Positions 29,153 through 49,787 are shown, numbered from the stretch's first letter. The stretch is 60,348 nt of DNA from Candidatus Goldiibacteriota bacterium (GCA_020052235.1 JAGVPM010000119.1:1-60348); one strand, 5' to 3'. The notes: generated by a model from the letters alone, not told the origin. A program made the numbers and translations.

Positions 29153-29158
29153 AAACAT

Positions 29159-29484: not shown

Positions 29485-29510
29485 AAGGAACGGTTTAAAA
29501 CCGTTGCCTA
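29485..29510. repeat. GTAG..CTAC hairpin-family element (imperfect copy) overlapping the stop codon of the ExeA-like gene
   Basis: aaggaacggtttaaaaccgttgcctac. The TAG stop (29508-29510) lies inside the element arm. Confidence 0.55.
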
Positions 29511-30326
29511 CTTTTTAAGCCCTAAATCGCCGCCAACCCCATCTACCATATCCTCATCCACAGCATCTTTTTTAATTAAAAAGCTTTCCAAGAGCGAATT
29601 ATCGCAAATGGTGTTGATCAAACGCGGAATCCCCTTGGAAAACTGATAAATTTTCTTGTAAGCGCTGGGCGAAAACAGCTCCCGGTCACACCCTACAATG
29701 TGCAAGCGATGCTTGATATATTCCGAGACCGACGCTTCCTGCAGGCTCTGCAAGGTAAACTTCAGGGCAATGCGCTGCTGCAACGGCGGATCCAAAGCAA
29801 TGTTTTGCTCCAAGTCCGATAAACCGATCAAGGTAATGGATAACAATTTTTGCCCCGGGGCTTCCAAATTCAAGAGTCCGCGGAATTCTTCGAAAATTTC
29901 ACGGGTCACGAGCATGTTGGCTTCGTCAATAATGACCGCCGCTTTTTTCCCTTGCTCGTAAATTTCCATGAGCCGCTCGTAAAGCGCCGGCAAAATCGTG
30001 GATTTTTTTTCGCCCGGATCTTTAGCACCCAACTGCATGGCGATTTTCCTCAAAAGCCACTCAGCCGTCACCTCGGAATGCACAATCACCATCAAACCGG
30101 CTTCATAGGTTTTATCCGCCTCTAAATTTTCCAGCAGCTTTCTGGCCAGCAGTGTTTTGCCGCATCCGATGTCCCCCACCATGACCGCCAAACCCTTCAT
30201 GGTGCTGATGCAATGCATGAGCCGGACCAAAGCCTCCGAATGCTGGCGGCTTTCAAAAAAGAATCGGGATTCCGGCGCATTGGAAAAAGGCTGTTGGGAA
30301 AACCCAAAAAAAGATTCGTAACTCAC
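29508..30326 (-). CDS. ExeA/MshM-like AAA ATPase (AAA_22-type)
   Basis: N-terminal FGF..PF pattern (FFGFSQQPFSNAPESRFFF), Walker A GDIGCGKT, Walker B AVIIDEAN. Confidence 0.8.
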   Translation of the reverse strand: MSYESFFGFSQQPFSNAPESRFFFESRQHSEALVRLMHCISTMKGLAVMVGDIGCGKTLLARKLLENLEADKTYEAGLMVIVHSEVTAEWLLRKIAMQLGAKDPGEKKSTILPALYERLMEIYEQGKKAAVIIDEANMLVTREIFEEFRGLLNLEAPGQKLLSITLIGLSDLEQNIALDPPLQQRIALKFTLQSLQEASVSEYIKHRLHIVGCDRELFSPSAYKKIYQFSKGIPRLINTICDNSLLESFLIKKDAVDEDMVDGVGGDLGLKK

Positions 30327-32804: not shown

Positions 32805-35800
32805 CTACGCTGCCTGATCCATTTTTAAAGACGGACGCTGCATGCCGGGCAATTTCCTGCGGTCAATCCATATGGGCATGGGTGCCATCAATTCTGACAA
32901 CGCGCCTTGCAAGGCATTGGTCTGCGGCATTAGCAATAGCCGCGGTAAAAGCAACTTTACGCGCTCCAAGGTACCATTAACCTGTACTTGTCTAACCCCG
33001 GCCACAAATCCCTGCCAAGCCGGAACCTTGGCTACCAAATCCAGCAATGTCCGAGTAGACTGTATCCGTTCGGCAGGTTGTTCCTGGGATTGAATAGCCG
33101 AAACCATGGCTCCCAGGAAGACCTTGGCATTGGCATCCGAAGGCCGGGCACTCCACTTCAAATACGCCTGATTAAGTTTGCCTTGACGCAAGTCCTGCGC
33201 CAAGCGGGATTCATCCTTGCCTAATTGTACCCTGAGATAATTAAGGGGCGCTACGCCCATCCAAATGCGATGAAGGGCATGCGTCATCCAACCCAAAGGA
33301 AGCGTATCCTGCAAAGACGTGGCTGCCCGGCGGCTCTCAGCGTTGATTTGACGCATATGATATTCCAAGGCAAGCCGCATTAAATATCCGGAAAATGCTC
33401 CCCGGTTCTGCATCATACCCGCCGGAAGATAAATGGTCGGCGTGCCTTGATCATTATATACCACCCGCCCAAAGGGCGCAGTCCATTGTCTGAGCCATCC
33501 GCCCGGAAGGCGATTCAGGGCCTGAAGGCCTACGGGCAGGTTGTAATCACCGGCGCCGTATTGGGCCATAATTTTCATGGCCGCGGCCTCGTATTGACTC
33601 TCGGTCAGCAGCTTGGCCCAAGCCTTGTTGCCTTCCGCCACCCGGATGCCTTTTTCAGTCTGCCCGGCCAAGTAGAAAAGCAAGGCGCCTTTCACCATAT
33701 ACAAAGCTCCTTGGAAAAATTGGATCATGCCGTCCACGGGCATTCGCAATCCCGGCTGCCCGGCTTGGCTGGGATCGGCGTTAAACAACACGCTGCGCAA
33801 CAAGTAACTCGTCAAACGCGACACCCAACTGCGTTCTCCAAAATAGGGCCGGTTGACTTCCCCGCTTGCGGCTGCCTGCGTTTCCGAAGGCTCTTTTTGT
33901 TCCTGAATTAAGACTTCGGCCGTACCTGCTGGGGTTGCTTGCAGGCGCGCCTCGGCGAATACATCGCGGCCCCAGGTCAGGGTTGCAACCAAGGCGCTGA
34001 ACCCATCCGTCAATGAGACCAGCAAATGATTCAAGGTATTCCCGATTTTCGGAATATGTTTAAACGGCAGCAGGCGTTCAAACCGCTCGTGCCAGCGAAG
34101 CCATGTGCTGGTAAATGCACCGGCGTACTCCGCATATTCCGGGCGCACGCCGCGGGTGCCGGGCGTGGCCATGACTCCGCCGCGCGAAGCAATAAACCAG
34201 GACCAGAAATTTTGCTTCCGGCCGACTGGCTGAGCGGCATTAAAACGCCGCCACAGGGATAACAGCATGGCTTCTTGAATTCCAAAAAGCAACGCACTAA
34301 TCACGGGCACGAACCATACTCCCGACAAGACAGCCAACGACGTAAACACCACGCCGGATAAAACCACATTGGCCACGGACATGGCCGGCGTTTTTTCCTT
34401 TTCCATTTCCTGGACCTCGGATCCGAAAACCGCAAAATGATTCTCCTCAATCTGACGCTGTCCGATCATATTTAAAGCCGCATGCCATCGAATGTCATAC
34501 CGTGGCGTCTTTGTCCGCGAAAGCTCGCCCAATTCCTTGAGAATACTTAAAATATCCTTATAATAAGTAACATAGTGACGGTTGCTTAAAACCGCTTCAT
34601 ACGCATCGGCAATGGTCACGGCGCGGCTGATGTCCGAAACCTGGTTGCCAACCAGCTGATCGGGATATCCTTTTCCATCCAGCCATTCATGATGCCGGGT
34701 TCCATCCACAATCTCAGCCGGAAATCCCAAAGCAGTCAGTAGTTTCGTACCCAACCTCGGATGCGTTTGCAGCAACGCCCGCTCCGGTTCCGTAAGTTCC
34801 TGAGTTTTATGCAACAGACTCAAGGGAAGCAGGATTTTTCCTGTGTCATGCAGCAAGCCGGCGTAAAGAAAACTTTCCACCTGTTCCCGGGTGAAGCCTT
34901 CTGTGGCATTGGCTTTCCCGAATACCGCCGCCATTTCCGCCGTGATCTGACCAACCCACCAGGAATGCGCAAAGGAATAATCCGGATCAAATCGGTACAA
35001 CAAAGTCAGCAACAACCAAATCGTAAATTCCTTACGCTTGGCCTCACTGGCTCCTTTGAAATCCGCAGCCAAAACCTCTTGAATCCATTGATTCAACTCC
35101 TCACCGACGGCGGACACTTTTCGTTCCAACTCGGGGGACCAGCGTTCCCGCACCTGCTCTGCGAGTTCCAAATCCGTCATGAAAACACGATACCGATTTA
35201 AAATATCTTCCGCGCCTTGTAATACGGCTTTACGCCGCTCAGGCGTCAAAGCTCCATACTCTTGCATAATCCGCCGGAAGGAAAATGACCGGGCATTCAC
35301 TGAAAATGCCCGGGCAAATTGACGTTCCGCCTTAAACACAGAACTGGTCTGCAGTTGCTTGCTGCGCACCTGGCGTATGGTTTCCTTGAGTTGAGTTAAA
35401 TAACCGGCCGTTTGCAAATCAAACGGTCCAGCAGGCGCCATATTGCCATTGGCGCGCATTTGATAATTATGCAAATACCCTGGAATGGAATTTGCTCTGG
35501 TTTCGAGATCTGAAACCGGCACCACCACGGGGCCGTAGATCCGGTCATCCAACCGCAATACCTTTCCTCCTGTCCCTTCCAGGTAAAACTTAACCCCCGC
35601 CACTTTGGTTTCAATGACAAACACTTGATCAAATTTCCATGCAATGGCCTCAAACCCGGATTGCTGCAACCGCTGGGCGATCAACCAGGCTGCAGGGGCG
35701 CTTAAATTGGGATACCGAATGTCATCGGCCAAATCCTCCAAATCGGATTTGAGCGATCCCAGAACTTGATGGAACCGGGCCACTTCCGGTGCATCCGCAG

Positions 35801-38800
35801 CAGCAACCGGCATTTTTTTCTCTGCCAACACGCGCTGCAACAAAGCATCAAATTTCCCGGCCGTCGTATTCGCATATTGGGTTAACTTGCCATTTTGATC
35901 CATTTCCGCAAACTGGGCCGTTACCATGTCCACGGCATAATGCATAGCCGCCTGCTCGGCTGCTGGCAAAAATGCCAGCATGTACCCGTTTACAGGCTCG
36001 GCCAAGCCGGCCAATTCGCTGATTAAAAATTTACGGGCCTCTGTAGTCTGCAAATCCACTTCAGCCAAATCCAGGAGCGCTTGAATAATAACCCCAGGTT
36101 GGGGATGCGCGCCGCGCATGTGCCCGAGAATAATTTTCACGGCATGGATTTCCTGGACAGCTGTCACAAGCTCCCCAGCTGGTGTTTTCACCGACAATGT
36201 AAAAACCTCGGCTTGGCCCGGTAAGACAGTTGGGAGCTGAAGGCGGCGAAAAACCCTTTCGAATTTGTGGCCATTTTGTTCCACGGGAACCACAGTTTTA
36301 TAATAGCCACATCCTGCAATTTCGTGTCCTAGACTATCCTTGACAACGACCGCACCGCGTAAATTTTCCGGTGAATGACCTTCTTGTTCAAGTTTGGCAA
36401 GCGTTCCCGCAATCTCGGCCGGCAAATCAATCCACATTTCTTTTTCTTTATGGTCTTCAAAAGACGCAACCAAGATACGCTGAACTTGGCCGCGGAATGA
36501 ACCGGCGGTATAAAAATAATCGCGTCGACTGTTATCCAATACTTCGCCTACAAAGCCGAGTTCTTTAAATGCCTTGAAAACATCATCTGCATTAAACCGA
36601 TGCCTGGCCGTATAATCGTGATCCTCGGACAGCGGCATGCGCATTTCCCAATATGACTGGCCGTTGCGCAATTCTTTTACCGTCTGCGGGTCACCCCAGC
36701 GATCGCCAAAAGTAAACCCGATAAAACGCGCCGTATCCCCGGGGAAATTTGCCGGATTTGCATAATAAGCGAGCGCTTTGATTAAATCATTTCGCGTGGG
36801 ATATTTGCGCGGATCGTCATGGGTACTCATGCGCTGCCAGTCAAAATCAGTAGCCGTAATGCCATGGCGCGCGATTGAAGGTGCGCGGTTTTCGAATGCT
36901 TCACCCATTAAAAAAGCGTTATTTTGTGAAAATACACGGGAAAGTTTTTCAATAAAGTCATCCTCAGGTTCATCGCCATGTCCGAACTGACCATAAAACT
37001 TATATGCAAAATGCAGCGCGTCGCCTCGGGCACCGTCGAATCCGGCATCCAGCCAATATTTCGCCGGATCCAAAATGTAAGCATAATCGTCCGCTTTTAA
37101 TGCTGTCCAATTCCATAACGCAAGATCCCCCCAGCGTTCGTTAAGACCATCTTTCACAACTCCAGGATGAAGATGCGGAGCGCCTAAATAACGTTTTTCT
37201 TTATCACCCCAGAGCAATGGATTTAACTTTGCCCTGAAGAACGGCAGATCAAATAAAACCTTGCCTCCGGCTTTGTGTACCTCGTCGATGGCCGCTTTCA
37301 GCTGATTATATCCCAACCACTGGGCGTGTGCATGGCGCCGCATCTCGTCATTGAAAGCCGGTTCTTTTTCAGCGGCTGCGATATCGTCTTGAGTCCAGGT
37401 ATCAATCGGCTTTTTAATGGTATCAATTAAAGCGGCTATCCGGCAATACCGTGGCAGCCAGCTTGCTCTTTCCGTTTCAAATGCTTCGAATTCCAGGGCG
37501 CGTTTATTTGATTTCGCTAAATCTCCCGCTTTAAATGCCTGCCAAGCTCCGCGCGAAATTCCCAGAACCCGCTTGCGAAGATTATCATAATCTACCTTGG
37601 TTTGTTTTTCAGGCGGTGCATGAATAAGTGCCATTAGATTGAGATCGGCCTGAACCTCGGTTACCTTCGACCAGTCAATGTCAAGTTCACTTACTGACCG
37701 CGGATCAATGGCCGCGTAGGGACTTTGGTCAGCAACGGCCATATGCGGCAAAAGCAGCATAATACCGATACCCAAAGGCTTTAAATATTTTTTGTAATAA
37801 TCAGCCAATCTGGAAAAAACCCCAATACCAGAATCTTTCGATCCGTCTTCCGAGCGCAAGGAGTATACTGGGATTGTTTCAGCAAAAAATTGATTTGTGT
37901 TGCTTCTCCACCAATTGCTTTTTTCATATTGCAGTCGCGCCCTGTCTAAGCAAGCTTGGGCGGAATCGAAACCATCGCTGCCGTCCGAGGGCATAAGATA
38001 CTCGGCCACCACGCGGTTAAATTCAGCTACGCTCCAAGTTTGTGAATAAGTACCGCCGGGAGTCTGGCGCATCGGAGCATGGGCCGGGTTACCACCGTCA
38101 AACACTTCCGGAAGAGTGAGCCTGAATGGTTCGGCGCCCCGCGGCCAACCGGAATATGTAGGCCAAGTGTCAGGATGAGTGGTATTTTCATACCATCCGC
38201 TCAGAAAATCAGCCAACCCCGTCAACCGCTGGCGAGCTGCTGTACGTACCTGATTTTCAGGAACATTGGCACCGCGCAGAACATTGATGAGCGCATCCGT
38301 TCCGATTCCTGAAAGCCATGGCCATACGGTTCCCTGGTGATATGCATGATCCTTATCTTGCGGTTCCCGATTGGTCTCATAAATCGAATGATATTGCGAA
38401 TCCCGTGGTGACAGTGTCCGGAATCCGAAGTGTGTCAGTAAATCTGCTTCTGCCGCTACCAACACCGCAGCTTGCCGGTCCCAACTCAAGAGATCCCCCG
38501 CCGCCGCGACCGCAAACAGCATATTCGGACGGATTGCATCGCCATGCGGATCGCCTTCGACCACGTCTCGCAGGACGCCACCCACAGAGGCGCGCAGTTC
38601 CTGCGCTTTATCTTCAGGGAGGTTATTTTCAGCTATAAATTTATCGGCGGTTCCTTGCCACGCCCGAGTATTTTCTTCGTTTTTAAACCAAAACTTATCG
38701 TTGAACGATTGTTTAACGCGCCCCGCAAGACGGGCGTAGTTTTCGGACTCCTTACTAGTTCCGCTCTTCTCTTCTGCAAATTCCATAAACTTAAGCGCCG

Positions 38801-41800: not shown

Positions 41801-44800
41801 GCGCCCGTAAGTTTTCTTTTATTTCCCGGATAAGCTTATCCCGCAATGGCTGGTCGGGTATTAATTCCTGCAAAACGATTTGTAATGAATTGCTCCACCC
41901 GTCCAAGTCCGCGGGCATTTGAAATCCCATTCCTTCAAATTGCGCATATAATTCGTTTCCAATTCGTTTTATGCCTTCTTGGTCCAAAGCCTCGGAAAAC
42001 TGAAACCGTCCAAATTCTTTAATCAAAATAAGTTCTTGCCAAGTTACGGTTTCAGGATTCCGGGGATTTAATTCTGACTTGGTAATGTACGTTTGAAAAA
42101 CATGATTGACTTTTTCCAGCATTTGGAGAACTATCGCCACCCGGACATCGATCGCTTCACCATAATAGAACGAAACGGCTAAATCCATAACCTCGTCCGA
42201 GCTGGTTTCCTTTTTTTCGGCCAAAGCTTGCAATCGCTGGATTTGCTTTTCCCTAGCTTCGGCGGGGAGTTCATTTAAAAATTCGTTCAACTGATTTTGG
42301 ATAAAATCAGCTCGTTGATCCGCATTGGGCAACCGTTGCGCTTCATTCACCCAAGTTTGCCACTGAAAACCCATCTGTTTCACTGCCTGATATTCCACAA
42401 ACCTCGTTTTTTCAGAGGCATAACCTGCGCTTTTTAATTGTTGAATGATTTCGCGGCCGTCTTTATCCTGGTTTAACTCATTTTTTATCTCAATAAGGGT
42501 TCCATAAGCTTTTTTCACAGGCTCCAAAGTATGGTCCACATCATCGCCATTCGCAATGGAAACTGGCAAAGCTTCATGATCGCCAATTTTACTTATAATT
42601 TCACGCATCTCATTTGTGACAACATTACCGGTAATTTGAACAAGGTCAGCATAATGCATAATAAAATTTCTTTGATTTTGGCTCACATACCGGCCGCCAT
42701 GGGGTTCGCCGTCATTGCCCGCGGATAAACCAAACCCGCTAATATCGACTCTTTCATTCGCGTAACTTGCCTGGGCGGCAATACGCAGCGGAATGCCGGC
42801 GTCTTCGCAATAAATTTTAAAATCCTCGAAATTCCAAAAAAATTGCCGGTTGCCATACGTGTGGGAATCCATCACGGAAAGACCGGTTTCAAACCCAGGA
42901 TACGCGGCGACTAAAGCGGTTTGGCCGTCATTGGCGATGATATTATTTTTTTGGTAGGACGAACCTAATTTTTTCTTAAGTTCTTGATTGCGCCGCTCAA
43001 TCGCAGTGGTAAATGCTTTGTATAAGAAAAAATTCGTTTCCATTTCCCCGTGAGGATTGTGTTGGCTGCCATAAGCGTATAAAACCGGCAAAAATTCAGG
43101 TTGTTCTATAAAACTAACCCGGACACCGTTTTGCTTATAATAGCCTTCCTTTACTTTCACTTCATATTCTTCATATTCAACCACCGGTTTGTTATCCTGG
43201 TATTCTTTGAAAGGCCTGCCGTTAAAGCATTTGGGCATTTTAATCTTAAAGGTATCAACTACTCGGGGCTCATCCACCCATTGGTACGCACCGTCTTTTC
43301 CGCTTACTTGCGAAACGCCTTTCAACCCCAGCGATCCTAAATCAATCGGTTCTTTATGCCCCGCTGAATTAACCTGATGGGGATAGGAAACAGTCCAGAC
43401 GGTTTGCTGGGAACCAAAAGGATCGCGGGGATCTCGAATCTTCGCATTCCAGTCTATTCTCGTAGCAAATAAATTTTCAAATCCGTCCATAATGGTCTTG
43501 ATCACATGGGACAAACCGCCACCGGTCGGAAAAATTTCCGCACTAATCAAATCCAAGGGACGGCCCTGCAATTCCCGCAAAGTCTGAAACCAACTACTGG
43601 GAACTTTCTGGTACATGAGCAGGGTCTTGAGCGCCAGGGTGTTGTTGTGGAAATCGCTAAAATGATTTTGCATGGTATTCAGCAGCAAATCATGGAGCTG
43701 CGGGCCGGTTCCCGGGATGAATCTCAACCGCACCACAGCATGTAAAAAGGGATAGTATGGTTCGATCATATCAAGCGGAAACACATTTCTTAACTGTTCA
43801 CCCATCTGATCTAAAAAGGTGATTAATTCTTGCTCCGCCGAGGTTTTTTCAAGCAAGCCGGCGTTATTTAATTTATTTAACCGTTCTTCCAATTGCTCGC
43901 GGTATTTGGTCCAATCTTTTGATTTTATGAGGTCAAGATAAAATTCTTTTTGTGAGTCCGTTAGTGCTCCGGATTGTGGCTGGGGGCCAAACCCAGGAAG
44001 CCAGCTTTCCTTTTCGCCCACCATAGCGGCGGCCAAACGTCCGCTGCTGTTCGGGACCAGCAGTAAATTCCAGAGGGTGTGGATAGCAAGCGCGGCCAGG
44101 AAACCGAAGGCCGTACCGAGGGCAAGGCTGGCGGCCAAAGGCAAACCAGCAATTCCCGAGATTCCAGCCAGAATGCCGGCGGTGATCACACCCGACATGC
44201 CCACGTGAACAGCCAGCAGGGACAAATAATGATACCATTTCGAGGTAACTTTTACATACCGGCCACCCATATATATAACCGATTCCCGGCCATGAAAAGC
44301 CGCCATCAAAGCAGCCGGGGCCGCTATTGCCGTAAATTTGGACAGTAAGTTTACTTGAATCCATGGAGTTCCGCCAGAGCCCACCAACGCCAGTGCCGCA
44401 AACACCAATCCCGTAAGCAACAACCCTTCCAACACAAGCGCCACCGCAGCCCGGCTCCCATGCAACTGGCCGGTGGTCTGATCAATCACCCATTCGCGAA
44501 GACTGGGGATAATGGCAGGCACGGCGTTTTGCCGGAGCGCAGTAACGGCCAAGCCCCACAGTCCGCTTGCCAAAGCGAGCATTTCGGCCCAGGTGGCCCA
44601 AAACTCCGAAAACCGGCCCGGGCGCTCCTCGTGGGTGCGTTCGTGCATCTGCACGGCGTTGCGCAATACATTGACCAGCGGGCTCTTGGAATCCTTGGCT
44701 AAACTTTCATATAAAAATTTCGTGGGTGACGCATCCAGGGGAGTGATTGCCAATTGCACGGAATTTTTCATCCAGGACCAGACGGTCTTCAAACGCGATC

Positions 44801-47800
44801 CGTCGATCAGCTCCGATTTCTCCACGGCGAAAATATACAAAAAGTCCAGCAACCCGCCCGTCAGCAACATATTAAAAGTTACTATCCCCGGGACAAACGT
44901 GGGTAATGAAAGAATTGCGCCGTTGGTTAACCAGGTCACGAACGTTGTTACCAGCGTGACCACGGCGCTGGCCAACCCCGAAATACCCAAAACCACGGGC
45001 ACCGAATGCACGGTTTTTGCCAACCCGCGGTTTAAAATCTCCTCGACCAGTGCATCCACCATGCTGCTGACCAATTCCTTGGGTTCGTGTCCCATGAGCA
45101 CCACGGCCCCCTCGGGCGGCCTGGCCAACGCCGCTCCGATCTTGCCTTCAGCCACAATGGGCCCCTGTACCGGATTGATCCAAAACTTCACATCCGCATT
45201 GGGCAACCACTGACTAGCTGCCTGCCCCACCAGAATGACCCGCTTGCCCGACATGTTCGAACGGATAAGGCGCTCAACATACATCTGCGCTTTGGCATTC
45301 CGGGCAATATAACTCAGCAAATTCTTCGCATCCATATTCTCCAGATAGGGCCGAATATCTTTGCCTTGGTAAAAAATCTGCTCGCCTTTAAAACTTAATT
45401 TCAAGGAACCTAAAAATTTCGCAAGCTTGGTCTCGTCCGTAACCTGAATGCCTTCGGATTGGGCCACCCAGGCCAGTGCGCGGAAGATCATGCCCAAATC
45501 CAGAATCCGGTAATTCAAATGAGCGCCTAGTAAACGGGCCGCATCGTATTTTTCGCGTCCCTGGGATCCATCGACGGTAATCAGCCACGCCAATTCCTGC
45601 AGTTTATTCTGCTTTTTCACCACATATTTGGGACGGGTCAAGGCATCATAGAGGATACCCAACTCGGAGGTGAAAATTTGCACTTCACCGCCAAACTCCA
45701 AGTTCGCACTGGCCCCCAACCGGATCTTTAAATCCATATATTGGTCTTGGGAACCCAAGGTTACTTTATAAACACCTGGTTGTACTTCCAAAACCTTGGC
45801 ATTTTTCCCATACACGCCGTTAAACTCCGATTCCTTGCCTTCGGGAACATTCGATACATTTTCCAACACCACATAACCGGATGCGCGTAAATAAACCACC
45901 AACTGCGTCAACAACTGTCCAAAATCCACATCCCCCCGGACGCGCAACGACACGCCCACTACATCCTGAACAATCCGCATGATGGTCTCGTTATTGAAAT
46001 CACCGAGGGTAAACTGGTCCGGTTGTTTGGATGGATAGTAGCGATGCCAGTTGGCGCGCATATTCTCATAAATGGAGTACAAAGTCTTCGTACGTGCCCG
46101 GAGGCTTTCCGCTCCCACAAATTCACCCGGAACCACGGCCGCCGTTCCTTTTAATTGAAAGCTTAAAAGTTGGTCCTCTAAAAGACGACGTTCCTTCTCC
46201 CGGCGATCCGGCTGGATCAGGGAGCGCAAATGCCTGACCAAACTCCCTTGTGACTCATAAAACTTTTTCTCGCGTTCATCGGCAAAACGATTGCCCCATT
46301 CCTTGATCACACCGGCAAACAAACGCTGCAGAAGGCCGCTCTCCGGGCGCTGCTCCACCCGGCCACGGATGCGCTTAACGACCTCAGCCAAGGTCTTCAG
46401 GTCTAATTTCTCAAAAGTGCCGGGCTCCAGACGGTAGCGCCGCATGATCTCAAACGCCGCTGCGTTGGCCTCATCTTCATCCTGCGCCTCCAACTGTACG
46501 GTCAAGGTCATGAGCTGCCGGTGCCGAATTGATTCCAGCAGGGCTTGATATTGAGCAAACGCGTCCTGAGCCGCGGCCAGCCACTGGTTCAGGTCTTGAA
46601 TGACACGCAAACTAACTTCCTGGTCCGAGCCGCGGGTCCACTCTACATCAGGATGCTCCTGTACCAAGGTGCTGCCCTCTGGTTTAGCCACTTGTTCCAA
46701 GTTACTCACGGCCCAGCCGATCAGTTCTGTTTCCAAATCCCGGGCACTCAAACCTTTTTTCTCGGGATGCGCCTGCAGGTAACGTTGCTTGGCATATTTA
46801 CTGCTTGCAACAGCCAGGGAAAATGTCATCGGGAACATAAACCCATGGTTAAAATCGCTCCAGCGGTTCGGCGCGAACGCGGTGGTTCTTAAATCCTTTT
46901 CTTCAATCCCGGCCTTGGAAATTTCTTTTTCATATGCCAAACGCGTCCGGCTGGGCATAACCAACAGAGTCTGGCCCCCAGGCGCATTGAAATCGAGCAT
47001 GCCGCCTTGCCGCTGCACGGCTTCAATCAATATTTGGCGGCGCTCTATGGGCCAGGCGCGCACATCAGCCTGTATGTTTTCCACGTAGTAATAACGGGCA
47101 AAATACACTGCCACATATTCTTGGGCGGCTTTCAACATACTCATCAAACGTTCTTCGCCCTGTTTACCGCCCAAGGATTCGCCGGCCATAATGAAAAAGT
47201 TGTCCGGATCACCCAAGAAAACTTTAAACTGATTACCCAGCTGTTTTTGCAACAACAACAACGCTTGCTCTTTAACAAACTGAGTGATTGCAGGTCCGTA
47301 GATGGTGCGCATTTGAGCAATACCGTCAATAGTCCCGGCCGTAAGCACCACGTCCTTATTATCGCCAAGCAGTTTACGCAGGGCCCTCTGCCCTGTGGAT
47401 CGTTGCGGTATCTTTTGGCGTTTCTCAATGGGCTGGTCGGAAAAAGAAAGCACGGGCCAAGCCAGGCCGGGGAAACGATCCGCCACCCAGTTATTCAGGT
47501 TGTGCAGCAACGTGGCGGTGATGAAGGCCAGCACGCCCTTGCCCACCACCACGCCCGGCGTCAAATACAGAACCGTGGCCATGGAAGCCGCGGGAATACC
47601 CCAAAGCGCAATACTGAAAAACACTCCGGAAATTGCCAAGGTAACCGCCAAGGCAGCCAGCCACTGTCCGGAGCTCCACTGTTTACCGCGGTGCAAATAA
47701 ATAAATCCAAGTCCAAACACCGTAGGAATGGCCAGCAGGAGCGGCAAAGAGGCCGCACCCAGGCCAAACATCAATACCAAAGGCGCAACGCGGAATAAAA

Positions 47801-49787
47801 GTTCTTCCACCCCCGGACGCAAAGCGCGCAAAGGATTAATCATTCGGACCGATATTTCATTTTTAAATTTCTGCATGATGCTTGGTGCCACAACCGCCGC
47901 GCTTCCCACTGTCAGCATAAACGCGTACAGTCCCGCCGGGAGCGCTCCCTGAACCGCCAGCCCGCTCAGCTCCAACCTTGCTCCGCCCAGCAGCGTCTTG
48001 ACATTCGCTTCCGCCGCCCCCCGCGTCAGCACCGCCACCTCATAGCCTTCATTCATCCGCAAGGTCTCGACCGCCAGGCTTCCCGCATTATTTTCGCTGC
48101 GCGGTCTTACCACCGCCACCAACCCGCTGTTTTTCAACGGCAACAGATATGTTCGGGTGCGCTCATTCCCCTGCGCCCGTTCCCAATCAATCTCCTGCTT
48201 TTCACCACGGTATCCCTTCAAAGCGGCCTCATACGCAGCCTTCAATTCCGCCACGCCCTTCGTGCCCTGTTCCACCAACCTTGCCGCCAAGTCATACTTG
48301 ATCGCCACGTCCAGCAATTTTCCAAATGTTGTCACTGCTTCGCCCGCTGCAACCCCGCGCTGCCGGAACTTCGTCTCCAGCGCCAGGATCGTTTGATTCT
48401 GCGCCAGCAACTTTTCCAACGGCGTCCTTTTTTCCTTCAACAGCGAAAAATACGGATTCACCAAATCCACATGCGTGATCCTCGGCTTCACGCTCACATA
48501 TCCGATCCCGCGTTGTTCCAATTCCGCCAATACATCCTGCGTATGATACCCGCCCGTGATCATCACGCCCACGTTCGCTTGCGCTGCCTTCATCCGGTTT
48601 TCAATCTGAGTCACAAACGTCCGGCTGCGCTCATCCGCCACGCGGTAAAAAGTCTCCGTTTCCTTCACAAATTCGTCCAGTCCTTGAATTTCCGCATCTA
48701 GGCCAAATTCCCCTGCCGTGTCCTGCGCTTGGATGTAATTTATAAACTCGTTTACACGGTAGCGTTCCGGATTTTTTCTATAGGCACCCAACTCTTCCGG
48801 TGAAGCCGAGATGTTCACCAGCTTCTCGATGACATCCAACCGGTTTTCCAGCTCATCCAGTTTCCGTTCCGCTTCCTTTTGGTACCATCCCTCTCTCAGT
48901 GCCGCGTCCGCGCGGTCCATTTCACGGTACAGTTCATCCGCATCCACCTTTGCTTCGAACACGTCCATCCCCGTTGATACGTAGGCTTCCAACTGCGGGT
49001 ATTCTTCCATGCCCTGCCCGTTTTTTTTCAGCGCCCCGGACAAGTACAACCCGTACCTCAGCACGGATTCTTTGCCTTCACGAAACCGCGTCCGATGCCG
49101 GTCGTGAGTGCTCAAGGTTTCCCCGTACACCTGCGGCTTCAAATTCTCCAGACTCTCCCGCAAATCGTATACGTACCCTTGGCTTTCATCGGACAAGAAT
49201 TTTTTCACGCTCGCGCGGTTGGACTCGTACTGTTTGACGTCTTCGATGCCTTCCAGCCGGACAGGATACTTGCCCGTGGCCGCATAGTATTCCGCCCCAG
49301 TGATTTTGCCGGCCTTTAAAAAATACTGCCCCACATCATTCTTCACTTGTGCCACAGGGCATTGGCTTAATACACCCACATCCACTTGGCTCCAGGCCCC
49401 TTCTACTCCCACCACGCCCACACCGTTATTTTTTGCCAAATATCCCAAAATTTCCGCGATATTATTCTGAACTTCCGCATTGCAATGCAAATCCTGGATA
49501 TAGACCACCGCACGCCCTTGGCCGGCTGACCTCTTTACGACCGTCCCCAGGCTTTCGGGTATCTCAATGGCTCGGCCATTAACAACGACTGCACTTTTTG
49601 GACTTGAGAAATTTTGGATATCAAAGGCAAAGGAAAGGTACGGCAGGATAAACGTTAGGCTCACAAACAAGGAAACCAATCGTGTGATTTGTTTAAACCG
49701 GCGATTGTGCCAAATCATCAACCATTGGCCTTGAACCAACGTTTTATTTAAAAAGAAGCGTTGAAACAAATCCATCATGGACATCAC
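32805..49787 (-). CDS. Giant multidomain membrane protein (5,660 aa): scaffold shared with the 1,978-aa paralogue plus alpha-glucan enzyme modules, HD-GYP and pseudo-enzyme modules
   Basis: Single uninterrupted 16,983-nt ORF with RBS gaggtg at the tandem ATGs. My residue count of the translation sums exactly to 5,660, and motif positions were checked against the DNA at EELLFR (47790-47807) and HDTGK (34836-34850). Confidence 0.9.
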   Translation of the reverse strand: MMSMMDLFQRFFLNKTLVQGQWLMIWHNRRFKQITRLVSLFVSLTFILPYLSFAFDIQNFSSPKSAVVVNGRAIEIPESLGTVVKRSAGQGRAVVYIQDLHCNAEVQNNIAEILGYLAKNNGVGVVGVEGAWSQVDVGVLSQCPVAQVKNDVGQYFLKAGKITGAEYYAATGKYPVRLEGIEDVKQYESNRASVKKFLSDESQGYVYDLRESLENLKPQVYGETLSTHDRHRTRFREGKESVLRYGLYLSGALKKNGQGMEEYPQLEAYVSTGMDVFEAKVDADELYREMDRADAALREGWYQKEAERKLDELENRLDVIEKLVNISASPEELGAYRKNPERYRVNEFINYIQAQDTAGEFGLDAEIQGLDEFVKETETFYRVADERSRTFVTQIENRMKAAQANVGVMITGGYHTQDVLAELEQRGIGYVSVKPRITHVDLVNPYFSLLKEKRTPLEKLLAQNQTILALETKFRQRGVAAGEAVTTFGKLLDVAIKYDLAARLVEQGTKGVAELKAAYEAALKGYRGEKQEIDWERAQGNERTRTYLLPLKNSGLVAVVRPRSENNAGSLAVETLRMNEGYEVAVLTRGAAEANVKTLLGGARLELSGLAVQGALPAGLYAFMLTVGSAAVVAPSIMQKFKNEISVRMINPLRALRPGVEELLFRVAPLVLMFGLGAASLPLLLAIPTVFGLGFIYLHRGKQWSSGQWLAALAVTLAISGVFFSIALWGIPAASMATVLYLTPGVVVGKGVLAFITATLLHNLNNWVADRFPGLAWPVLSFSDQPIEKRQKIPQRSTGQRALRKLLGDNKDVVLTAGTIDGIAQMRTIYGPAITQFVKEQALLLLQKQLGNQFKVFLGDPDNFFIMAGESLGGKQGEERLMSMLKAAQEYVAVYFARYYYVENIQADVRAWPIERRQILIEAVQRQGGMLDFNAPGGQTLLVMPSRTRLAYEKEISKAGIEEKDLRTTAFAPNRWSDFNHGFMFPMTFSLAVASSKYAKQRYLQAHPEKKGLSARDLETELIGWAVSNLEQVAKPEGSTLVQEHPDVEWTRGSDQEVSLRVIQDLNQWLAAAQDAFAQYQALLESIRHRQLMTLTVQLEAQDEDEANAAAFEIMRRYRLEPGTFEKLDLKTLAEVVKRIRGRVEQRPESGLLQRLFAGVIKEWGNRFADEREKKFYESQGSLVRHLRSLIQPDRREKERRLLEDQLLSFQLKGTAAVVPGEFVGAESLRARTKTLYSIYENMRANWHRYYPSKQPDQFTLGDFNNETIMRIVQDVVGVSLRVRGDVDFGQLLTQLVVYLRASGYVVLENVSNVPEGKESEFNGVYGKNAKVLEVQPGVYKVTLGSQDQYMDLKIRLGASANLEFGGEVQIFTSELGILYDALTRPKYVVKKQNKLQELAWLITVDGSQGREKYDAARLLGAHLNYRILDLGMIFRALAWVAQSEGIQVTDETKLAKFLGSLKLSFKGEQIFYQGKDIRPYLENMDAKNLLSYIARNAKAQMYVERLIRSNMSGKRVILVGQAASQWLPNADVKFWINPVQGPIVAEGKIGAALARPPEGAVVLMGHEPKELVSSMVDALVEEILNRGLAKTVHSVPVVLGISGLASAVVTLVTTFVTWLTNGAILSLPTFVPGIVTFNMLLTGGLLDFLYIFAVEKSELIDGSRLKTVWSWMKNSVQLAITPLDASPTKFLYESLAKDSKSPLVNVLRNAVQMHERTHEERPGRFSEFWATWAEMLALASGLWGLAVTALRQNAVPAIIPSLREWVIDQTTGQLHGSRAAVALVLEGLLLTGLVFAALALVGSGGTPWIQVNLLSKFTAIAAPAALMAAFHGRESVIYMGGRYVKVTSKWYHYLSLLAVHVGMSGVITAGILAGISGIAGLPLAASLALGTAFGFLAALAIHTLWNLLLVPNSSGRLAAAMVGEKESWLPGFGPQPQSGALTDSQKEFYLDLIKSKDWTKYREQLEERLNKLNNAGLLEKTSAEQELITFLDQMGEQLRNVFPLDMIEPYYPFLHAVVRLRFIPGTGPQLHDLLLNTMQNHFSDFHNNTLALKTLLMYQKVPSSWFQTLRELQGRPLDLISAEIFPTGGGLSHVIKTIMDGFENLFATRIDWNAKIRDPRDPFGSQQTVWTVSYPHQVNSAGHKEPIDLGSLGLKGVSQVSGKDGAYQWVDEPRVVDTFKIKMPKCFNGRPFKEYQDNKPVVEYEEYEVKVKEGYYKQNGVRVSFIEQPEFLPVLYAYGSQHNPHGEMETNFFLYKAFTTAIERRNQELKKKLGSSYQKNNIIANDGQTALVAAYPGFETGLSVMDSHTYGNRQFFWNFEDFKIYCEDAGIPLRIAAQASYANERVDISGFGLSAGNDGEPHGGRYVSQNQRNFIMHYADLVQITGNVVTNEMREIISKIGDHEALPVSIANGDDVDHTLEPVKKAYGTLIEIKNELNQDKDGREIIQQLKSAGYASEKTRFVEYQAVKQMGFQWQTWVNEAQRLPNADQRADFIQNQLNEFLNELPAEAREKQIQRLQALAEKKETSSDEVMDLAVSFYYGEAIDVRVAIVLQMLEKVNHVFQTYITKSELNPRNPETVTWQELILIKEFGRFQFSEALDQEGIKRIGNELYAQFEGMGFQMPADLDGWSNSLQIVLQELIPDQPLRDKLIREIKENLRAHIPGDSSAFSMTAANIADSFCNSLSLLERKKLLKPMGFYLNPTHPYVMYPGRLVPEKFDARIIGELERVAQQGYQFVGLARVQPHHKSLEGKFKQVIKSVQDAPDQVLFVPAYEPALKEAGFIGATGAMTPSWKATGTSEVREASGALGPNISYQVINTAYGFLNGKPVSIYELHGEGNLGDGANEGIYNPATGKIEPVGSSRSFDVVFSPNGQEDPAMLLDTGIAAMRAEKEDQSRNYDDAAISFVNLPWVRACRDHLAGTVVYTAWNTAAESLIYYNAKITTYKQAQAQIRNLVGEFAQKFRTDFPGNQAELDYISELLTGNEKIAPYLFNISPRTGFSGYSTHQAKRGLRDFIKLFRAISFGGIYDNIHFTGQINALFEHVSNGSFRVYLSTLIGEERFQPIAEWLKELEADNKVFSLREKFDLFAGLLNQLETVINADYDKSLSQKYEPQEIPLKSEIDDFIRTLENNPDTTRMIMTLLDGDAIATPYRLNGYRNGDKKGLTDFKRLLVHSLRVLHENKSGGSGMEIAQHIKAGWLFEFLRTLNKNDTNNERAQAYLRMIDSLQESIHVSDLTIPVGDKIGSLKKSLDYFVAQLLRIQKISAPALRITENTSESRRITLGVIGLFQNWVLDKTTGQIHWGRAMIALVLETTALALGVVGVFQLSPDFLANPTLTGLLSLGIPSLAMTLLHGRTVLVYNKETENYQSVPITAAHIGQLVILTGLMAAAVFAGAALGLLGMLGLAAVWGITAGAVLGFAVALVIHTLWNTVLVRWIPGLASGIIIRPKSSSVQPLIGRITDDTKTMPNVWRDTGRLLFLGSNAVRTFVKSWNGIPQIWAGHPWFQEEWGRDTFISLPGTLLVEGRFDDAETLLRNFARRVKNGVIPNRIWSPAESDKNEYNTSDGSLLFFQAVKKTYEYTNDKKFLSDMMPVMREIIRNYSEGTGYYRNDRFNPIKMDPADALIAVPAQSTWMDAAIHGKDPVTPRNGKPVEINALWYAALKFMEFAEEKSGTSKESENYARLAGRVKQSFNDKFWFKNEENTRAWQGTADKFIAENNLPEDKAQELRASVGGVLRDVVEGDPHGDAIRPNMLFAVAAAGDLLSWDRQAAVLVAAEADLLTHFGFRTLSPRDSQYHSIYETNREPQDKDHAYHQGTVWPWLSGIGTDALINVLRGANVPENQVRTAARQRLTGLADFLSGWYENTTHPDTWPTYSGWPRGAEPFRLTLPEVFDGGNPAHAPMRQTPGGTYSQTWSVAEFNRVVAEYLMPSDGSDGFDSAQACLDRARLQYEKSNWWRSNTNQFFAETIPVYSLRSEDGSKDSGIGVFSRLADYYKKYLKPLGIGIMLLLPHMAVADQSPYAAIDPRSVSELDIDWSKVTEVQADLNLMALIHAPPEKQTKVDYDNLRKRVLGISRGAWQAFKAGDLAKSNKRALEFEAFETERASWLPRYCRIAALIDTIKKPIDTWTQDDIAAAEKEPAFNDEMRRHAHAQWLGYNQLKAAIDEVHKAGGKVLFDLPFFRAKLNPLLWGDKEKRYLGAPHLHPGVVKDGLNERWGDLALWNWTALKADDYAYILDPAKYWLDAGFDGARGDALHFAYKFYGQFGHGDEPEDDFIEKLSRVFSQNNAFLMGEAFENRAPSIARHGITATDFDWQRMSTHDDPRKYPTRNDLIKALAYYANPANFPGDTARFIGFTFGDRWGDPQTVKELRNGQSYWEMRMPLSEDHDYTARHRFNADDVFKAFKELGFVGEVLDNSRRDYFYTAGSFRGQVQRILVASFEDHKEKEMWIDLPAEIAGTLAKLEQEGHSPENLRGAVVVKDSLGHEIAGCGYYKTVVPVEQNGHKFERVFRRLQLPTVLPGQAEVFTLSVKTPAGELVTAVQEIHAVKIILGHMRGAHPQPGVIIQALLDLAEVDLQTTEARKFLISELAGLAEPVNGYMLAFLPAAEQAAMHYAVDMVTAQFAEMDQNGKLTQYANTTAGKFDALLQRVLAEKKMPVAAADAPEVARFHQVLGSLKSDLEDLADDIRYPNLSAPAAWLIAQRLQQSGFEAIAWKFDQVFVIETKVAGVKFYLEGTGGKVLRLDDRIYGPVVVPVSDLETRANSIPGYLHNYQMRANGNMAPAGPFDLQTAGYLTQLKETIRQVRSKQLQTSSVFKAERQFARAFSVNARSFSFRRIMQEYGALTPERRKAVLQGAEDILNRYRVFMTDLELAEQVRERWSPELERKVSAVGEELNQWIQEVLAADFKGASEAKRKEFTIWLLLTLLYRFDPDYSFAHSWWVGQITAEMAAVFGKANATEGFTREQVESFLYAGLLHDTGKILLPLSLLHKTQELTEPERALLQTHPRLGTKLLTALGFPAEIVDGTRHHEWLDGKGYPDQLVGNQVSDISRAVTIADAYEAVLSNRHYVTYYKDILSILKELGELSRTKTPRYDIRWHAALNMIGQRQIEENHFAVFGSEVQEMEKEKTPAMSVANVVLSGVVFTSLAVLSGVWFVPVISALLFGIQEAMLLSLWRRFNAAQPVGRKQNFWSWFIASRGGVMATPGTRGVRPEYAEYAGAFTSTWLRWHERFERLLPFKHIPKIGNTLNHLLVSLTDGFSALVATLTWGRDVFAEARLQATPAGTAEVLIQEQKEPSETQAAASGEVNRPYFGERSWVSRLTSYLLRSVLFNADPSQAGQPGLRMPVDGMIQFFQGALYMVKGALLFYLAGQTEKGIRVAEGNKAWAKLLTESQYEAAAMKIMAQYGAGDYNLPVGLQALNRLPGGWLRQWTAPFGRVVYNDQGTPTIYLPAGMMQNRGAFSGYLMRLALEYHMRQINAESRRAATSLQDTLPLGWMTHALHRIWMGVAPLNYLRVQLGKDESRLAQDLRQGKLNQAYLKWSARPSDANAKVFLGAMVSAIQSQEQPAERIQSTRTLLDLVAKVPAWQGFVAGVRQVQVNGTLERVKLLLPRLLLMPQTNALQGALSELMAPMPIWIDRRKLPGMQRPSLKMDQAA
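32808..34385 (-). other. C-terminal membrane-anchored tail (aa ~5135-5660) related to the smaller giant ORF tail; zincin motif degenerate
   Basis: Two hydrophobic helices come first. YLPAGMMQNRGAFSGYLMRLALEYHMRQ then occupies the position of ELYFHEN..LAIVAHELEHLQQ in the paralogue, with the first His lost. Both proteins end in ..AA. Confidence 0.4.
34563..34985 (-). other. HD-GYP c-di-GMP phosphodiesterase-type domain (aa ~4935-5075)
   Basis: HSWWV, AGLLHDTGKILLP, HPRLG, RHHEWLDGKGYP and IADAYEA. Confidence 0.85.
36588..37895 (-). other. GH77 4-alpha-glucanotransferase (amylomaltase)-like domain (aa ~3965-4400)
   Basis: IPVYSLRS..SGIGVF, IMLLLPH..DQSPYAA.D, LFDLPFF, FDGARGDALHF, MGEAFEN and MSTHDD (compare TGTHDN). 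Confidence 0.6.
38298..39290 (-). other. Amylo-alpha-1,6-glucosidase (GDE_C, archaeal-type glycogen debranching) domain (aa ~3500-3830)
   Basis: AGHPWFQEEWGRDTFISLPG, GVIPNR, YNTSDGSLLFF, STWMDA, TPRNGKPVEINALWY, RPNMLFA and YHQGTVWPWL. Confidence 0.7.
39453..39935 (-). other. Membrane module 3 (aa ~3285-3445), internal repeat of module 2
   Basis: WVLDKTTGQIHWGRAMIALVLE, TLLHGRTVLVY, ITAAHIGQLVI and ALVIHTLWN. Confidence 0.5.
41298..43550 (-). other. GT-B glycosyltransferase, glycogen/starch-synthase-like, with a ~400-aa insert between the lobes (aa ~2080-2830)
   Basis: FPTGGGLSHV (compare KTGGLGDV), IIANDGQTALVAAY (compare HDWHTALVP), YPGRLVPEKF (compare VGRLxxQKG) and MTPSWKATGTSE (compare MPSRFEPCGLxQ). 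Confidence 0.45.
44043..45005 (-). other. Membrane module 2 (aa ~1595-1915) with HERTH and IHTLWN motifs
   Basis: NAVQMHERTHEE (HERTH at 44631-44645), WVIDQTTGQLHGSRAAVALVLE, AAFHGRESVIY and ALAIHTLWN. Internally repeated as module 3. Confidence 0.45.
45138..45590 (-). other. Cytidylate-kinase-like fold with a destroyed P-loop (aa ~1400-1550)
   Basis: ITVDGSQGREKYDAARLLGAHLNYRILDLGMIFRA..GKRVILVGQAA..ADVKFWI parallels Cmk IAIDGPxGSGKST..LG..YLDTGAMYRA..G.V.EGRD..A..KIFL. GxxGxGK[ST] is replaced by GSQGREKY. Confidence 0.5.
47088..47354 (-). other. Degenerate GGDEF-like (nucleotide-cyclase-fold) segment (aa ~812-900)
   Basis: TIDGIAQMRTIYGPAIT..LLLLQKQLGNQFKVFLGDPDNFFIMAGE parallels DIDHFKxxNDxxGHxxGD..RxGGDEFxxx, but the signature residues are replaced. 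Confidence 0.3.
47463..47975 (-). other. Membrane module 1 with the full CPBP/Abi-type motif set (aa ~605-775)
   Basis: EELLFR (aa 661-666), YLHR (aa ~697-700) and LLHNLNN (aa 760-766) lie within consecutive hydrophobic helices. Confidence 0.5.
48378..49520 (-). other. Shared N-terminal module (aa ~90-470); possibly Tiki/TraB/ChaN-like
   Basis: YIQDLHCNAEVQ, VEG, GAEYYAATGK, ITGGYH and NPYFSLLKEKRTPLEKLLAQ are colinear with 9151-10308 of the smaller giant ORF. Confidence 0.4.

Follow-up and report, generated by a model that had tools for sequence, protein, structure and literature searches.

A predicted membrane-tethered giant protein from a Candidatus Goldiibacteriota contig combines alpha-glucan enzyme domains with an HD-GYP domain between family-typical ends

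A 60,348-nucleotide stretch of DNA from a Candidatus Goldiibacteriota bacterium (GCA_020052235.1 JAGVPM010000119.1:1-60348; 'the window' below is this whole stretch) contains a single uninterrupted frame of 16,983 nt at 32805..49787 (-), which translates from a GTG codon into 5,660 amino acids (aa). What kind of protein, here called the giant, could such an open reading frame (ORF) encode? A preliminary description had read it as an alpha-glucan enzyme set and an HD-GYP domain strung, together with pseudo-enzymes and intramembrane-protease-like modules, on a multi-pass membrane scaffold, and had proposed either a membrane-organised, c-di-GMP-linked glucan-remodelling machine or a polyprotein precursor. 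The enzyme set, the HD-GYP domain and the scaffold are borne out by profile searches and hydropathy. We consider it somewhat probable that the giant is one member of a paralogously expanded 'head-cargo-tail' family of inner-membrane proteins, and that it forms a membrane-tethered, single-polypeptide unit which would make and trim a glycogen-like alpha-glucan at the inner membrane face, coupled to its HD-GYP domain.

An open frame of 5,660 codons at about 50% GC does not arise by chance, and the single frame agrees with the public gene call, the same protein (P0001) being held in a public collection at 5,657 aa. The true start is likely the ATG at 49778, three codons in, which gives that length; GAGG stands 8 nt ahead of it and a 394-nt, very AT-rich intergenic spacer lies upstream. 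Domains were placed by tiled Pfam and NCBIfam profile searches over the whole protein, which recovered GDE_C (3e-89), GH77 (2e-20), HD-GYP (2e-18) and a cytidylate-kinase fold where the preliminary description had put them; the motif strings that it quoted were all found, in the order and at the positions it gave. Self-BLAST of the giant returned no internal repeats at E<=1e-3. The resulting layout is as follows, with GC3 denoting GC content at third codon positions and TM a transmembrane helix.

32805..49787 (-): whole ORF, 5,660 aa; 5,657 aa from the ATG at 49778
49614..49688 (-): signal peptide or signal anchor, aa 34-58, from hydropathy and sequence, with predicted cleavage
48348..49613 (-): head, aa 59-480, TIKI/ChaN/erythromycin-esterase-like, family-defining and predicted periplasmic
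47952..48347 (-): post-head linker, aa 481-612, kept in closer relatives only
47478..47951 (-): membrane block A, aa 613-770, about five TM by hydropathy, with a CPBP-type motif triple
45168..47438 (-): unknown module plus cytidylate-kinase-like fold, aa 784-1540, by profile match, P-loop degenerate
44823..45014 (-): membrane block B1, aa 1592-1655, about two TM by hydropathy
44046..44495 (-): membrane block B2, aa 1765-1914, about four TM, with E1787, H1832, H1903 and N1907; paralogue of block C
39888..44045 (-): GT5 (glycogen/starch-synthase)-like region with large insertions, aa 1915-3300, recognised via relative P0071
42828-43562 (-): GT5-like N-domain core, aa ~2076-2320, with GGL at 2090 and ANDGQ at 2285; GRLVPEK at 2713 lies beyond the core
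39453..39920 (-): membrane block C, aa 3290-3445, about four TM, 34% identical to B2
37971..39374 (-): amylo-alpha-1,6-glucosidase domain (GDE_C / GH133-type), aa 3472-3939, D3638 and E3894 conserved
36558..37970 (-): GH77-like / clan GH-H 4-alpha-glucanotransferase domain, aa 3940-4410, catalytic residues invariant
34968..36557 (-): unannotated region, aa 4411-4940, common to P0002 from aa ~4533 on
34557..34952 (-): HD-GYP domain, aa 4946-5077, HDTGK and HHEWLDGKGYP intact
34251..34388 (-): TM hairpin D, aa 5134-5179, by hydropathy; the module is repeated in P0002
32808..34250 (-): family-typical C-terminal tail, aa 5180-5660, by tail profile; a basic stretch, then -QAA-COOH
36018..44000 (-): low-GC3 island, codons ~1930-4590, spanning the GT5-like region, block C and the GDE and GH77-like domains
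4579..10515 (-): second head-bearing paralogue, 1,978 aa, head 43% identical, ending -DDAA

In the arrangement that we propose, a Sec-type signal sequence would place a TIKI/erythromycin-esterase-like hydrolase, the head, in the periplasm, and some 18 further TM helices in five blocks would stitch the remaining chain to the cytoplasmic face. The cytoplasmic stretches would begin with a cytidylate-kinase-like, nucleotide-binding pseudo-kinase. An island would follow that bears a divergent GT5 alpha-1,4-glucan-synthase-like domain, which could build the polymer, and an 'indirect' debranching pair of amylo-1,6-glucosidase and GH77-like 4-alpha-glucanotransferase, which could trim and debranch it. 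The HD-GYP domain comes next and may couple the glucan work locally to turnover of cyclic di-GMP (c-di-GMP) or a related dinucleotide, ahead of a tail ending in -AA.

Membership of a family is established by the head, which BLASTP matched at aa ~25-475 in 119 of 119 listed relatives, always at the relative's own N-terminus and as the only part that all of them have in common with the giant. Invariant in an alignment of 19 heads are D99, H101, Q107, E129, G130, R387, G412, G413 and H415 (numbering of the full protein), making up the motifs D99-x-H101, E129, R387 and GG-x-H415. Neither PF04187 (ChaN/Tiki) nor PF05139 (erythromycin esterase) matches the head of the giant itself; the former matches three of the 19 head homologues (best 4.5e-7) and the latter one (1e-4). 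A search of the head profile against PDB sequences gave chance-level FliG matches only. For the AlphaFold2 (AF2) model of the head (mean pLDDT 80), the top Foldseek matches are the Bcr135-type structures 3b55, 2rad and 2qgm, 3b55 at probability 0.99 and E 5e-3 with a TM-score of only ~0.2; ChaN (2g5g) and HopBA1 (5t09) stand lower in the list. Among these, 3b55, 2g5g and 5t09 belong to the TIKI superfamily, whose 2His/2Glu catalytic motif is formed by E3900/H3902/E3930/H4030 in RRSP and includes H85/E113 in Bcr135 (PMC6254334). Head residues D99/H101/E129/H415 mirror this motif by position and spacing, without superposition; the His-to-Glu distance is 28 residues, as in Bcr135 and RRSP, and an Asp (D99) takes the place of the first Glu. 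The structural matches, the motif pattern ([D/E]-x-H, 28 residues, E, then H) and the identical spacing suggest that the head is probably a remote but catalytic TIKI-type hydrolase, some homologues of which are also recognised by the Pfam ChaN and erythromycin esterase profiles. It differs from the superfamily in the remoteness of the match, in a helical insertion of ~200 aa and in being fused to thousands of residues of cargo.

The hydrophobic segment at aa 34-58 has RRFKQITR ahead of it and a signal-peptidase-like site, SFA↓FD, after it, which close relatives keep as (T/S/A)(W/F)A↓F(E/D). From this segment and its conserved site the head is predicted to be exported, with cleavage after SFA. 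PrgY/TraB proteins consist of an extracytoplasmic TIKI-type domain followed by TM helices, a layout that the giant would resemble in this respect.

The opposite end is also family-typical. A hidden Markov model (HMM) seeded from aa 5290-5660 and run against 232 relatives matches the giant at aa 5308-5650, the protein ending in ...RRKLPGMQRPSLKMDQAA (C-terminal sequence ...IDRRKLPGMQRPSLKMDQAA), and locates the tail at the extreme C-terminal end in 42 of the 232. The relatives end in Ala in 144 of 232 cases, against 9 of 120 control proteins, and in Ala-Ala in 92 of 232, against 3 of 120. Their C-termini are R/K-rich at -12 to -7, with a hydrophobic residue at -5 and an [A/S]-A-COOH end, a stretch encoded in the giant at 32808..32870 (-). 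The tail matches no Pfam family, and its AF2 model (pLDDT 71) has a best PDB fold match at only E 0.28. We take the basic stretch and -AA terminus to resemble the tags by which AAA+ proteases or C-terminal processing proteases recognise a protein. The conserved family C-terminus resembles a degron or a PDZ-type tag.

Searched against 1.84 billion protein cluster representatives, the head profile found 10,258 at E<=1e-3 and 7,023 at E<=1e-30; in the best 150 of the 10,258, the match begins by residue ~140, with the single exception of a partial best stretch. Head-bearing proteins are mostly 2-8 thousand residues (kaa) long, reaching 7,768 aa among the best 150 listed. A homologue search with aa 1-5000 of the giant returned about 130 other giant proteins of 2.8-8 kaa and no full-length orthologue. 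With more than 10,000 clusters sharing the head, a framing of the giant as a unique machine is too strong; the companion claim, that no characterised protein strings these modules together, stands, none having been found.

The closest head homologues come from metagenome-assembled genomes (MAGs) labelled candidate division FCPU426 or Candidatus Firestonebacteria, to which the host bacterium appears most similar, and remoter head-bearing proteins are labelled Omnitrophota, Elusimicrobia, Auribacterota and Endomicrobiales. We found no literature on giant proteins of FCPU426. One genome per GTDB species was scanned with a six-sequence head alignment, and the best 80 of 161 head-encoding stretches fall in about a dozen MAGs. 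Among these 80, CSMAG_1987 holds at least 17 copies, SRR22302359_metabat2_40 at least 12, CSMAG_228 at least 10, and two Firestonebacteria MAGs at least nine and at least seven. Some heads stand in tandem: three on JAUVAV010000026.1 (L017, L026, L031) lie ~7 kb apart and three on CBDUZI010000001.1 (L007, L015, L021) 9-22 kb apart, one of the two host MAGs being labelled FCPU426 and the other only 'uncultured bacterium'. The window itself holds a second head gene at 4579..10515 (-), whose product has TM-like segments at aa 18-43, 1334-1441 and 1639-1663, ends in ...HRGIDDAA and, over its 1,978 aa, matches no Pfam or NCBIfam profile.

Between the common ends the cargo varies. Precomputed Pfam lists give enolase, TIM and PGK in P0007 and, in other members, PPDK parts, PGM/PMM, FBPase, ROK, SIS, SecA_DEAD, HEAT, M48 with ABC1, kinases, HATPase_c and methyltransferases; SecA is found in the head-bearing relatives P0027, P0072 and P0115. 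The nearest relative, P0002 (5,599 aa), has the head, HD-GYP domain, TM hairpin and tail in common with the giant and, between these shared ends, DnaJ, cytidylate kinase (CMK) and glucosamine-6-P-isomerase-type domains; homology ends at aa 610 of the giant and picks up again at aa 4533. The pair formed by the unknown module and the CMK-like fold, at aa 784-1538 in the giant, is found at 4833-5593 in P0013, and lies near the C-terminus in both P0013 and P0014. Judged by these alignments, cassettes appear to move between family members.

Base composition points the same way. GC3 is ~0.62-0.65 in the head, block A, blocks B1-B2 and the tail, and 0.55-0.68 in the window's housekeeping genes; the GT region (0.46), the GDE domain (0.51) and the GH77-like domain (0.45) have lower values. 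A fit with two change points places these at codons 1930 and 4590 (GC3 0.621, 0.470 and 0.579 in turn), with a log-likelihood gain of 55 against at most 7.8 in shuffles. Block B2 ends at the first boundary, and the second is close to aa 4533, the point from which P0002 is similar again. The island would fit replacement of a cassette between conserved ends and, together with the different cargo that P0002 carries between the same ends, suggests cassette exchange as a route of diversification.

The island includes the debranching pair. GDE_C (PF06202), the profile of the glycogen debranching enzyme (GDE), covers aa 3498-3839 at E 3.2e-89 (300 bits against a cut-off of 21), and the domain aligns with residues 1067-1134 and 1250-1454 of Candida glabrata GDE (PDB 5d06/5d0f). 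D3638, in TWMD, is kept in 113 of 114 homologues and E3894, in LPEVFDG, in 114 of 114; going by work on the C. glabrata enzyme, the two are the presumed catalytic pair. Glyco_hydro_77 (PF02446) matches aa 3972-4238 at E 1.9e-20 over profile positions 1-262 of 465 only, and the full domain at aa 3940-4410 is 35-45% identical to homologues annotated with PF02446. R4254, D4256, H4259, E4296, H4323 and D4324 are invariant in 59 of 59 sequences. In the C-terminal half, RGD4256A corresponds to RLDA (nucleophile) and GE4296A to AEA (acid/base) of GH13 regions II and III, and a region IV-type STHDD follows; this GH13-type alignment supports assignment to clan GH-H. Invariant catalytic residues across 59-114 homologues argue for retained catalysis, and both modules look catalytically competent from their residues. 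The pseudo-enzyme label of the preliminary description does not suit the GDE, GH77-like or HD-GYP domains, which keep their catalytic residues, and fits the CMK-like module only.

About 60 stand-alone proteins of ~1,050 aa (P0233-P0293) match aa 3441-4420 of the giant at E ~1e-200 or better and carry both Pfam domains; most are labelled Elusimicrobia and some Omnitrophota. Debrancher and amylomaltase, expected to be separate enzymes, are therefore already fused in these proteins. The GH77-like domain comes first in them and GDE_C second, the reverse of the giant, and each domain is 35-51% identical to its counterpart, so that the pair can be seen as an existing bifunctional unit, permuted and embedded in the giant. 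Many of the stand-alone proteins have one or two N-terminal hydrophobic segments. Indirect debranching by eukaryotic GDE combines a transferase with a glucosidase, in that order along the chain, and the stand-alone fusions look like its bacterial counterpart. As in C. glabrata GDE, 4-alpha-glucanotransferase and amylo-alpha-1,6-glucosidase domains share one chain in the giant, which differs in having a GH77-like transferase with GH13-like regions II and III, in placing the glucosidase first and in being membrane-embedded.

The GT5-like region ahead of this pair is far more divergent. On the giant, PF08323 reaches only E 6e-3 at ~2200-2296 (16.8 bits, below the cut-off of 22.7) and TIGR02095 E 3e-4 (19.4 bits against a cut-off of 328). 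A fragment of relative P0071 passes PF08323 at 2.4e-14 and aligns to aa ~2076-2315 of the giant at E 5e-8, through GGL and ANDGQ, its GRLVPEK segment aligning at E 0.012. Searches of PDB sequences by phmmer with the region at aa 1915-3300, whole or as N- and C-terminal halves, found no match. The glycogen-synthase-like GT-B assignment made earlier is hence below cut-off when tested directly and is supported through P0071, on whose homology we accept the domain as GT5-like.

Two further modules involve nucleotides. Cytidylate_kin (PF02224) matches aa ~1401-1540 at E 2e-18 over profile positions 1-137 of 211, below the cut-off of TIGR00017. The loss of the P-loop noted before is confirmed: the giant reads GSQGREKY where Yersinia CMK has GPSGAGKG, and the Walker A consensus GxxxxGK[ST] is absent, a degeneracy from which we read the module as probably a nucleotide-binding pseudo-kinase. 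The degenerate GGDEF-like stretch reported alongside it was not recovered, PF00990 having no match in aa 790-1400 at E<=10. The HD-GYP domain matches HD_5 (PF13487) and HD at aa 4946-5077 (E 2.4e-18), with HDTGK at aa 4980 and HHEWLDGKGYP at aa 5032, and its motifs are intact in alignment with V-cGAP3 (5z7c), PA4781 (4r8z) and PmGH (4mcw). Like these phosphodiesterases it keeps both the HD and the HHExxDGxGYP motifs; it differs from them in having no receiver or recognised sensor upstream, being set between a 530-aa region of unknown kind and the TM hairpin. It could act on c-di-GMP or on cGAMP. The window also encodes a stand-alone GGDEF diguanylate cyclase at 16084..17169 (-) (PF00990, 2.3e-47), which indicates that the organism makes c-di-GMP.

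Hydropathy gives ~19 hydrophobic helices, about one TM per 300 aa, in six blocks whose hydrophobic parts span aa 34-58, 613-766, 1592-1655, 1777-1912, 3306-3440 and 5134-5179. Block A, with five helices, has basic loops at 638-662 and after 766; blocks B1 (2 TM), B2 (4), C (4) and D (2) have K/R-rich flanks on both sides and apparently even helix counts, the basic flanks implying that the chain returns to the same side each time. The head would thus lie outside, block A would bring the chain inside, and the enzyme modules would all be cytoplasmic. GT5, CMK-like and HD-GYP domains need cytoplasmic nucleotides, and the predicted placement agrees with these substrates. Block A carries EELLFR (661), F..YLH (695-699) and HNLNN (762-766), corresponding to the CPBP motifs EExxxR, FxxxH and HxxxN, and when block A is compared by hhalign with the CPBP-motif regions of relatives, the PF02517-positive P0077 and P0080 among them, the probability is 69% at E 4e-5. 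Blocks B2 and C, 34% identical, are paralogues by direct pairwise comparison only (E 2e-24) and keep single E/H/H/N residues at matching positions, near the predicted cytoplasmic face. PF02517 itself matches none of blocks A, B2 and C at E<=10; of the CPBP/Abi modules claimed, what survives is the motif triple of block A, and intramembrane-protease-like modules were not recovered by profile searches. A B2/C HMM was found twice in the giant and as a single copy in only one of 232 relatives, and the idea that these blocks are a family-wide spacer was rejected on that ground.

The nearest known systems are the giant proteins of Omnitrophota. Archaeovorins have many TM regions, GT5 as their second commonest domain, glycolytic enzymes, PPDK and GGDEF, PilZ genes downstream and N-terminal regions that 'lack identifiable domains' (West-Roberts 2023, 10.1101/2023.11.21.568195). 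In a catalogue of 916 proteins of at least 10 kaa, TM or signal-peptide content is present in 94%; one class described there is the 'multi-enzyme metabolic cluster', with PF08323 in 153 proteins, and HD-domain regulators occur in a signalling module (Nielsen & Lui 2026, 10.64898/2026.06.07.730766). The giant is like these in being a many-TM chain tiled with divergent, normally soluble enzymes of sugar metabolism and signalling, GT5 being among the commonest domains there and c-di-GMP parts recurring, and its head-bearing relatives carry SecA_DEAD, HEAT, PGM, PPDK, TIM and FBPase. It is smaller, at 5.7 kaa against 10-147 kaa (the surveys start at 10 kaa and the type protein has ~40 kaa), and lacks the SecA_DEAD present in most of them as well as HEAT, C39 and dockerin, the tiled search finding no SecA at E<=0.1 and none of the other three. 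Those giants are from Omnitrophota, whereas the nearest relatives here are labelled FCPU426/Firestonebacteria; their loci are reported to be type II secretion system-like with PilZ, the neighbours here are housekeeping genes, and in place of an N-terminus without identifiable domains there is a TIKI-like, family-defining head. By analogy only, MARTX toxins also have conserved ends around variable enzyme modules that differ between paralogues and strains, and the MARTX effector RRSP has a TIKI fold (PMC6254334); the giant differs in its housekeeping-type metabolic cargo and internal TM blocks, with no repeat arms or cysteine protease domain detected.

Several observations weigh against a glucan-building, cytoplasmic unit. 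GT5 enzymes have a KxGGL motif with a lysine, and a compact GT-B spacing. The giant reads FPTGGGL and lacks this Lys, as does P0071, and the 428 aa from ANDGQ (2285) to GRLVPEK (2713), much more than in P0071, indicate a large insertion. P0071 is the only homologue of the GT5-like domain detected: a word-based homologue search with aa 1915-3300 came back empty, missing even the giant itself, and a scan of JGI metagenomes with aa 2600-3000 found no relative. Given this divergence, the domain may be inactive as a synthase. No branching enzyme, phosphorylase or NDP-glucose pyrophosphorylase was found on the protein or in the window. The best solved match of the HD-GYP domain is a cGAMP-specific enzyme, which makes its nucleotide substrate uncertain, and the hydrophobic N-terminal segments of the stand-alone debranching homologues make a periplasmic site of action possible. 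All family members are known from sequence alone. The topology rests on hydropathy and a positive-inside count rather than a trained predictor, and for related giants the predictions of different tools disagree (West-Roberts 2023, 10.1101/2023.11.21.568195).

Could the chain instead be a polyprotein precursor, cut by its own TIKI-like head or CPBP-like blocks, or by host proteases, into separate glucan enzymes and a phosphodiesterase? We think this unlikely. The head does have a catalytic-type 2His/2Glu-like motif of a superfamily that contains proteases, block A the full CPBP motif triple and B2 and C the E/H/H/N residues, the membrane blocks are placed exactly between cargo modules, and the same idea has been raised for Omnitrophota giants with regard to their C39 and S8 domains (West-Roberts 2023). 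However, CPBP appears in no profile match, and B2 and C are almost confined to the giant (one of 232 relatives, in single copy), which argues against a family-wide processing device. The head is predicted to lie across the membrane from the linkers that would need cutting, and no cleavage-site repeats or, in self-BLAST, repeated linker were seen. The polyprotein half of the preliminary proposal has no direct support.

A role at the surface or in the periplasm, as proposed for Archaeovorins, with an exported chain whose glucan enzymes degrade host glycogen or cell-envelope glucans, seems to us equally doubtful. It would account for the N-terminal signal sequence, for the overlap in cargo with Archaeovorins (SecA_DEAD, HEAT, GT5, PGM and PPDK in relatives), for the frequent N-terminal hydrophobic segments of the stand-alone GH77-GDE homologues and for downstream genes that resemble PEP-CTERM/exopolysaccharide-associated ATPase and TPR proteins. 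It would leave HD-GYP, CMK-like and GT5 domains, which use cytoplasmic nucleotides, on the wrong side of the membrane, and the flanks of the internal TM blocks, basic on both sides, fit hairpin or 4-TM insertions back to the cytoplasm. The window has complete leucine biosynthesis and housekeeping genes and no sign of a reduced predatory genome, and housekeeping genes also surround relative P0004.

A metabolite-sensing signalling protein, in which the enzyme-like modules serve as ligand sensors or scaffolds and HD-GYP is the sole real output, is quite improbable. The degenerate P-loop of the CMK-like module and the highly divergent GT5-like module without its motif Lys would suit it, and in relatives HATPase_c, kinase, GGDEF and REC outputs accompany the enzyme domains; against it, the catalytic residues of the GDE and GH77-like domains are invariant across 59-114 homologues, the giant included. 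Finally, the ORF might be an assembly artefact in which genes of different organisms were joined, as could be suggested by the fall in GC3 (0.62 to 0.47) over codons ~1930-4590 and by the missing full-length orthologue. This is very improbable. It would need two in-frame mis-joins within a 5,660-codon frame not formed by chance, and the start and end of that one frame, each typical of the same protein family, argue strongly against it. Block C, which lies in the island, has its paralogue B2 outside, and independent contigs commonly carry 5-8-kaa relatives that possess both this head and this tail.

Returning to the membrane-tethered glucan unit and its family, giant multi-TM proteins tiled with enzymes of sugar metabolism and signalling are already known from Omnitrophota metagenomes. 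What appears new from these comparisons is a head and tail uniting thousands of proteins of 2-8 kaa across several candidate phyla, their multi-copy expansion in MAGs labelled FCPU426/Firestonebacteria, the combination of GT5-like, GH133, GH77-like and HD-GYP domains, and the evidence for an exchangeable island. It is possible, as a tentative extension, that these proteins form a widespread and unrecognised head-cargo-tail system, in which exchangeable enzyme cassettes would be tied to the inner membrane, with a periplasmic TIKI-type head before them and a cytoplasmic tail behind. The basic -AA-COOH end of the tail would be a recognition tag (for instance for an AAA+ unfoldase/protease or a PDZ protein), and Archaeovorins would stand at the extreme end of the system. 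Several candidate phyla would then hard-wire enzymes of central carbon metabolism, glycan metabolism and signalling to the inner membrane. The conserved -AA tail suggests a specific recognition step, and the tag, if real, would point to regulated turnover, extraction or docking. Omnitrophota giants were reported earlier without a unifying sequence feature, and the head provides a family handle that can be searched and modelled. At 5.7 kaa the giant is a tractable member, with a coherent pathway as cargo (glucan synthase-like, glucosidase and glucanotransferase domains with HD-GYP) and intact putative active sites in the debranching pair and HD-GYP; if the tethered enzymes work, they would represent a different organisation of glycogen-type metabolism in bacteria.

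The window is otherwise an ordinary bacterial chromosome. Upstream of the giant lie leuA, an aconitase-family protein (LeuC-type), leuB, asd, truA and a DUF4922/HIT-like gene; downstream are a TPR protein, an AAA_22 ATPase, tRNA-Gly, tRNA-Cys and a sigma-54 response regulator; and farther off are EF-G, an M18 peptidase, the GGDEF protein, a flavodiiron-type protein (metallo-beta-lactamase-like plus flavodoxin) and a rhomboid. The idea of a conserved gene neighbourhood was rejected, since P0004, one of the relatives, stands amid type IV pilus and housekeeping genes unlike those around the giant. The gene just upstream, 50182..51288 (-), is DUF4922 / Ap4A-phosphorylase-N-like (HIT-type), has no NCBIfam name and could act on nucleotide sugars. 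Immediately downstream, 29508..30326 (-) is similar to the ATPase of the XrtA/PEP-CTERM system (TIGR03015, 6.7e-58, below cut-off) and 30345..32612 (-) to PrsT, a TPR protein (3.8e-26). Exopolysaccharide loci are where both families are associated, which gives a weak hint of a link to such loci. Positions 1..2000 of the window have a GC content of 0.35, against ~0.50-0.55 elsewhere. The ORF of the sigma-54 regulator, 27608..29170 (-), has a GTG start that overlaps tRNA-Cys (29159..29232, -) by 12 nt, and its true start is probably farther downstream.

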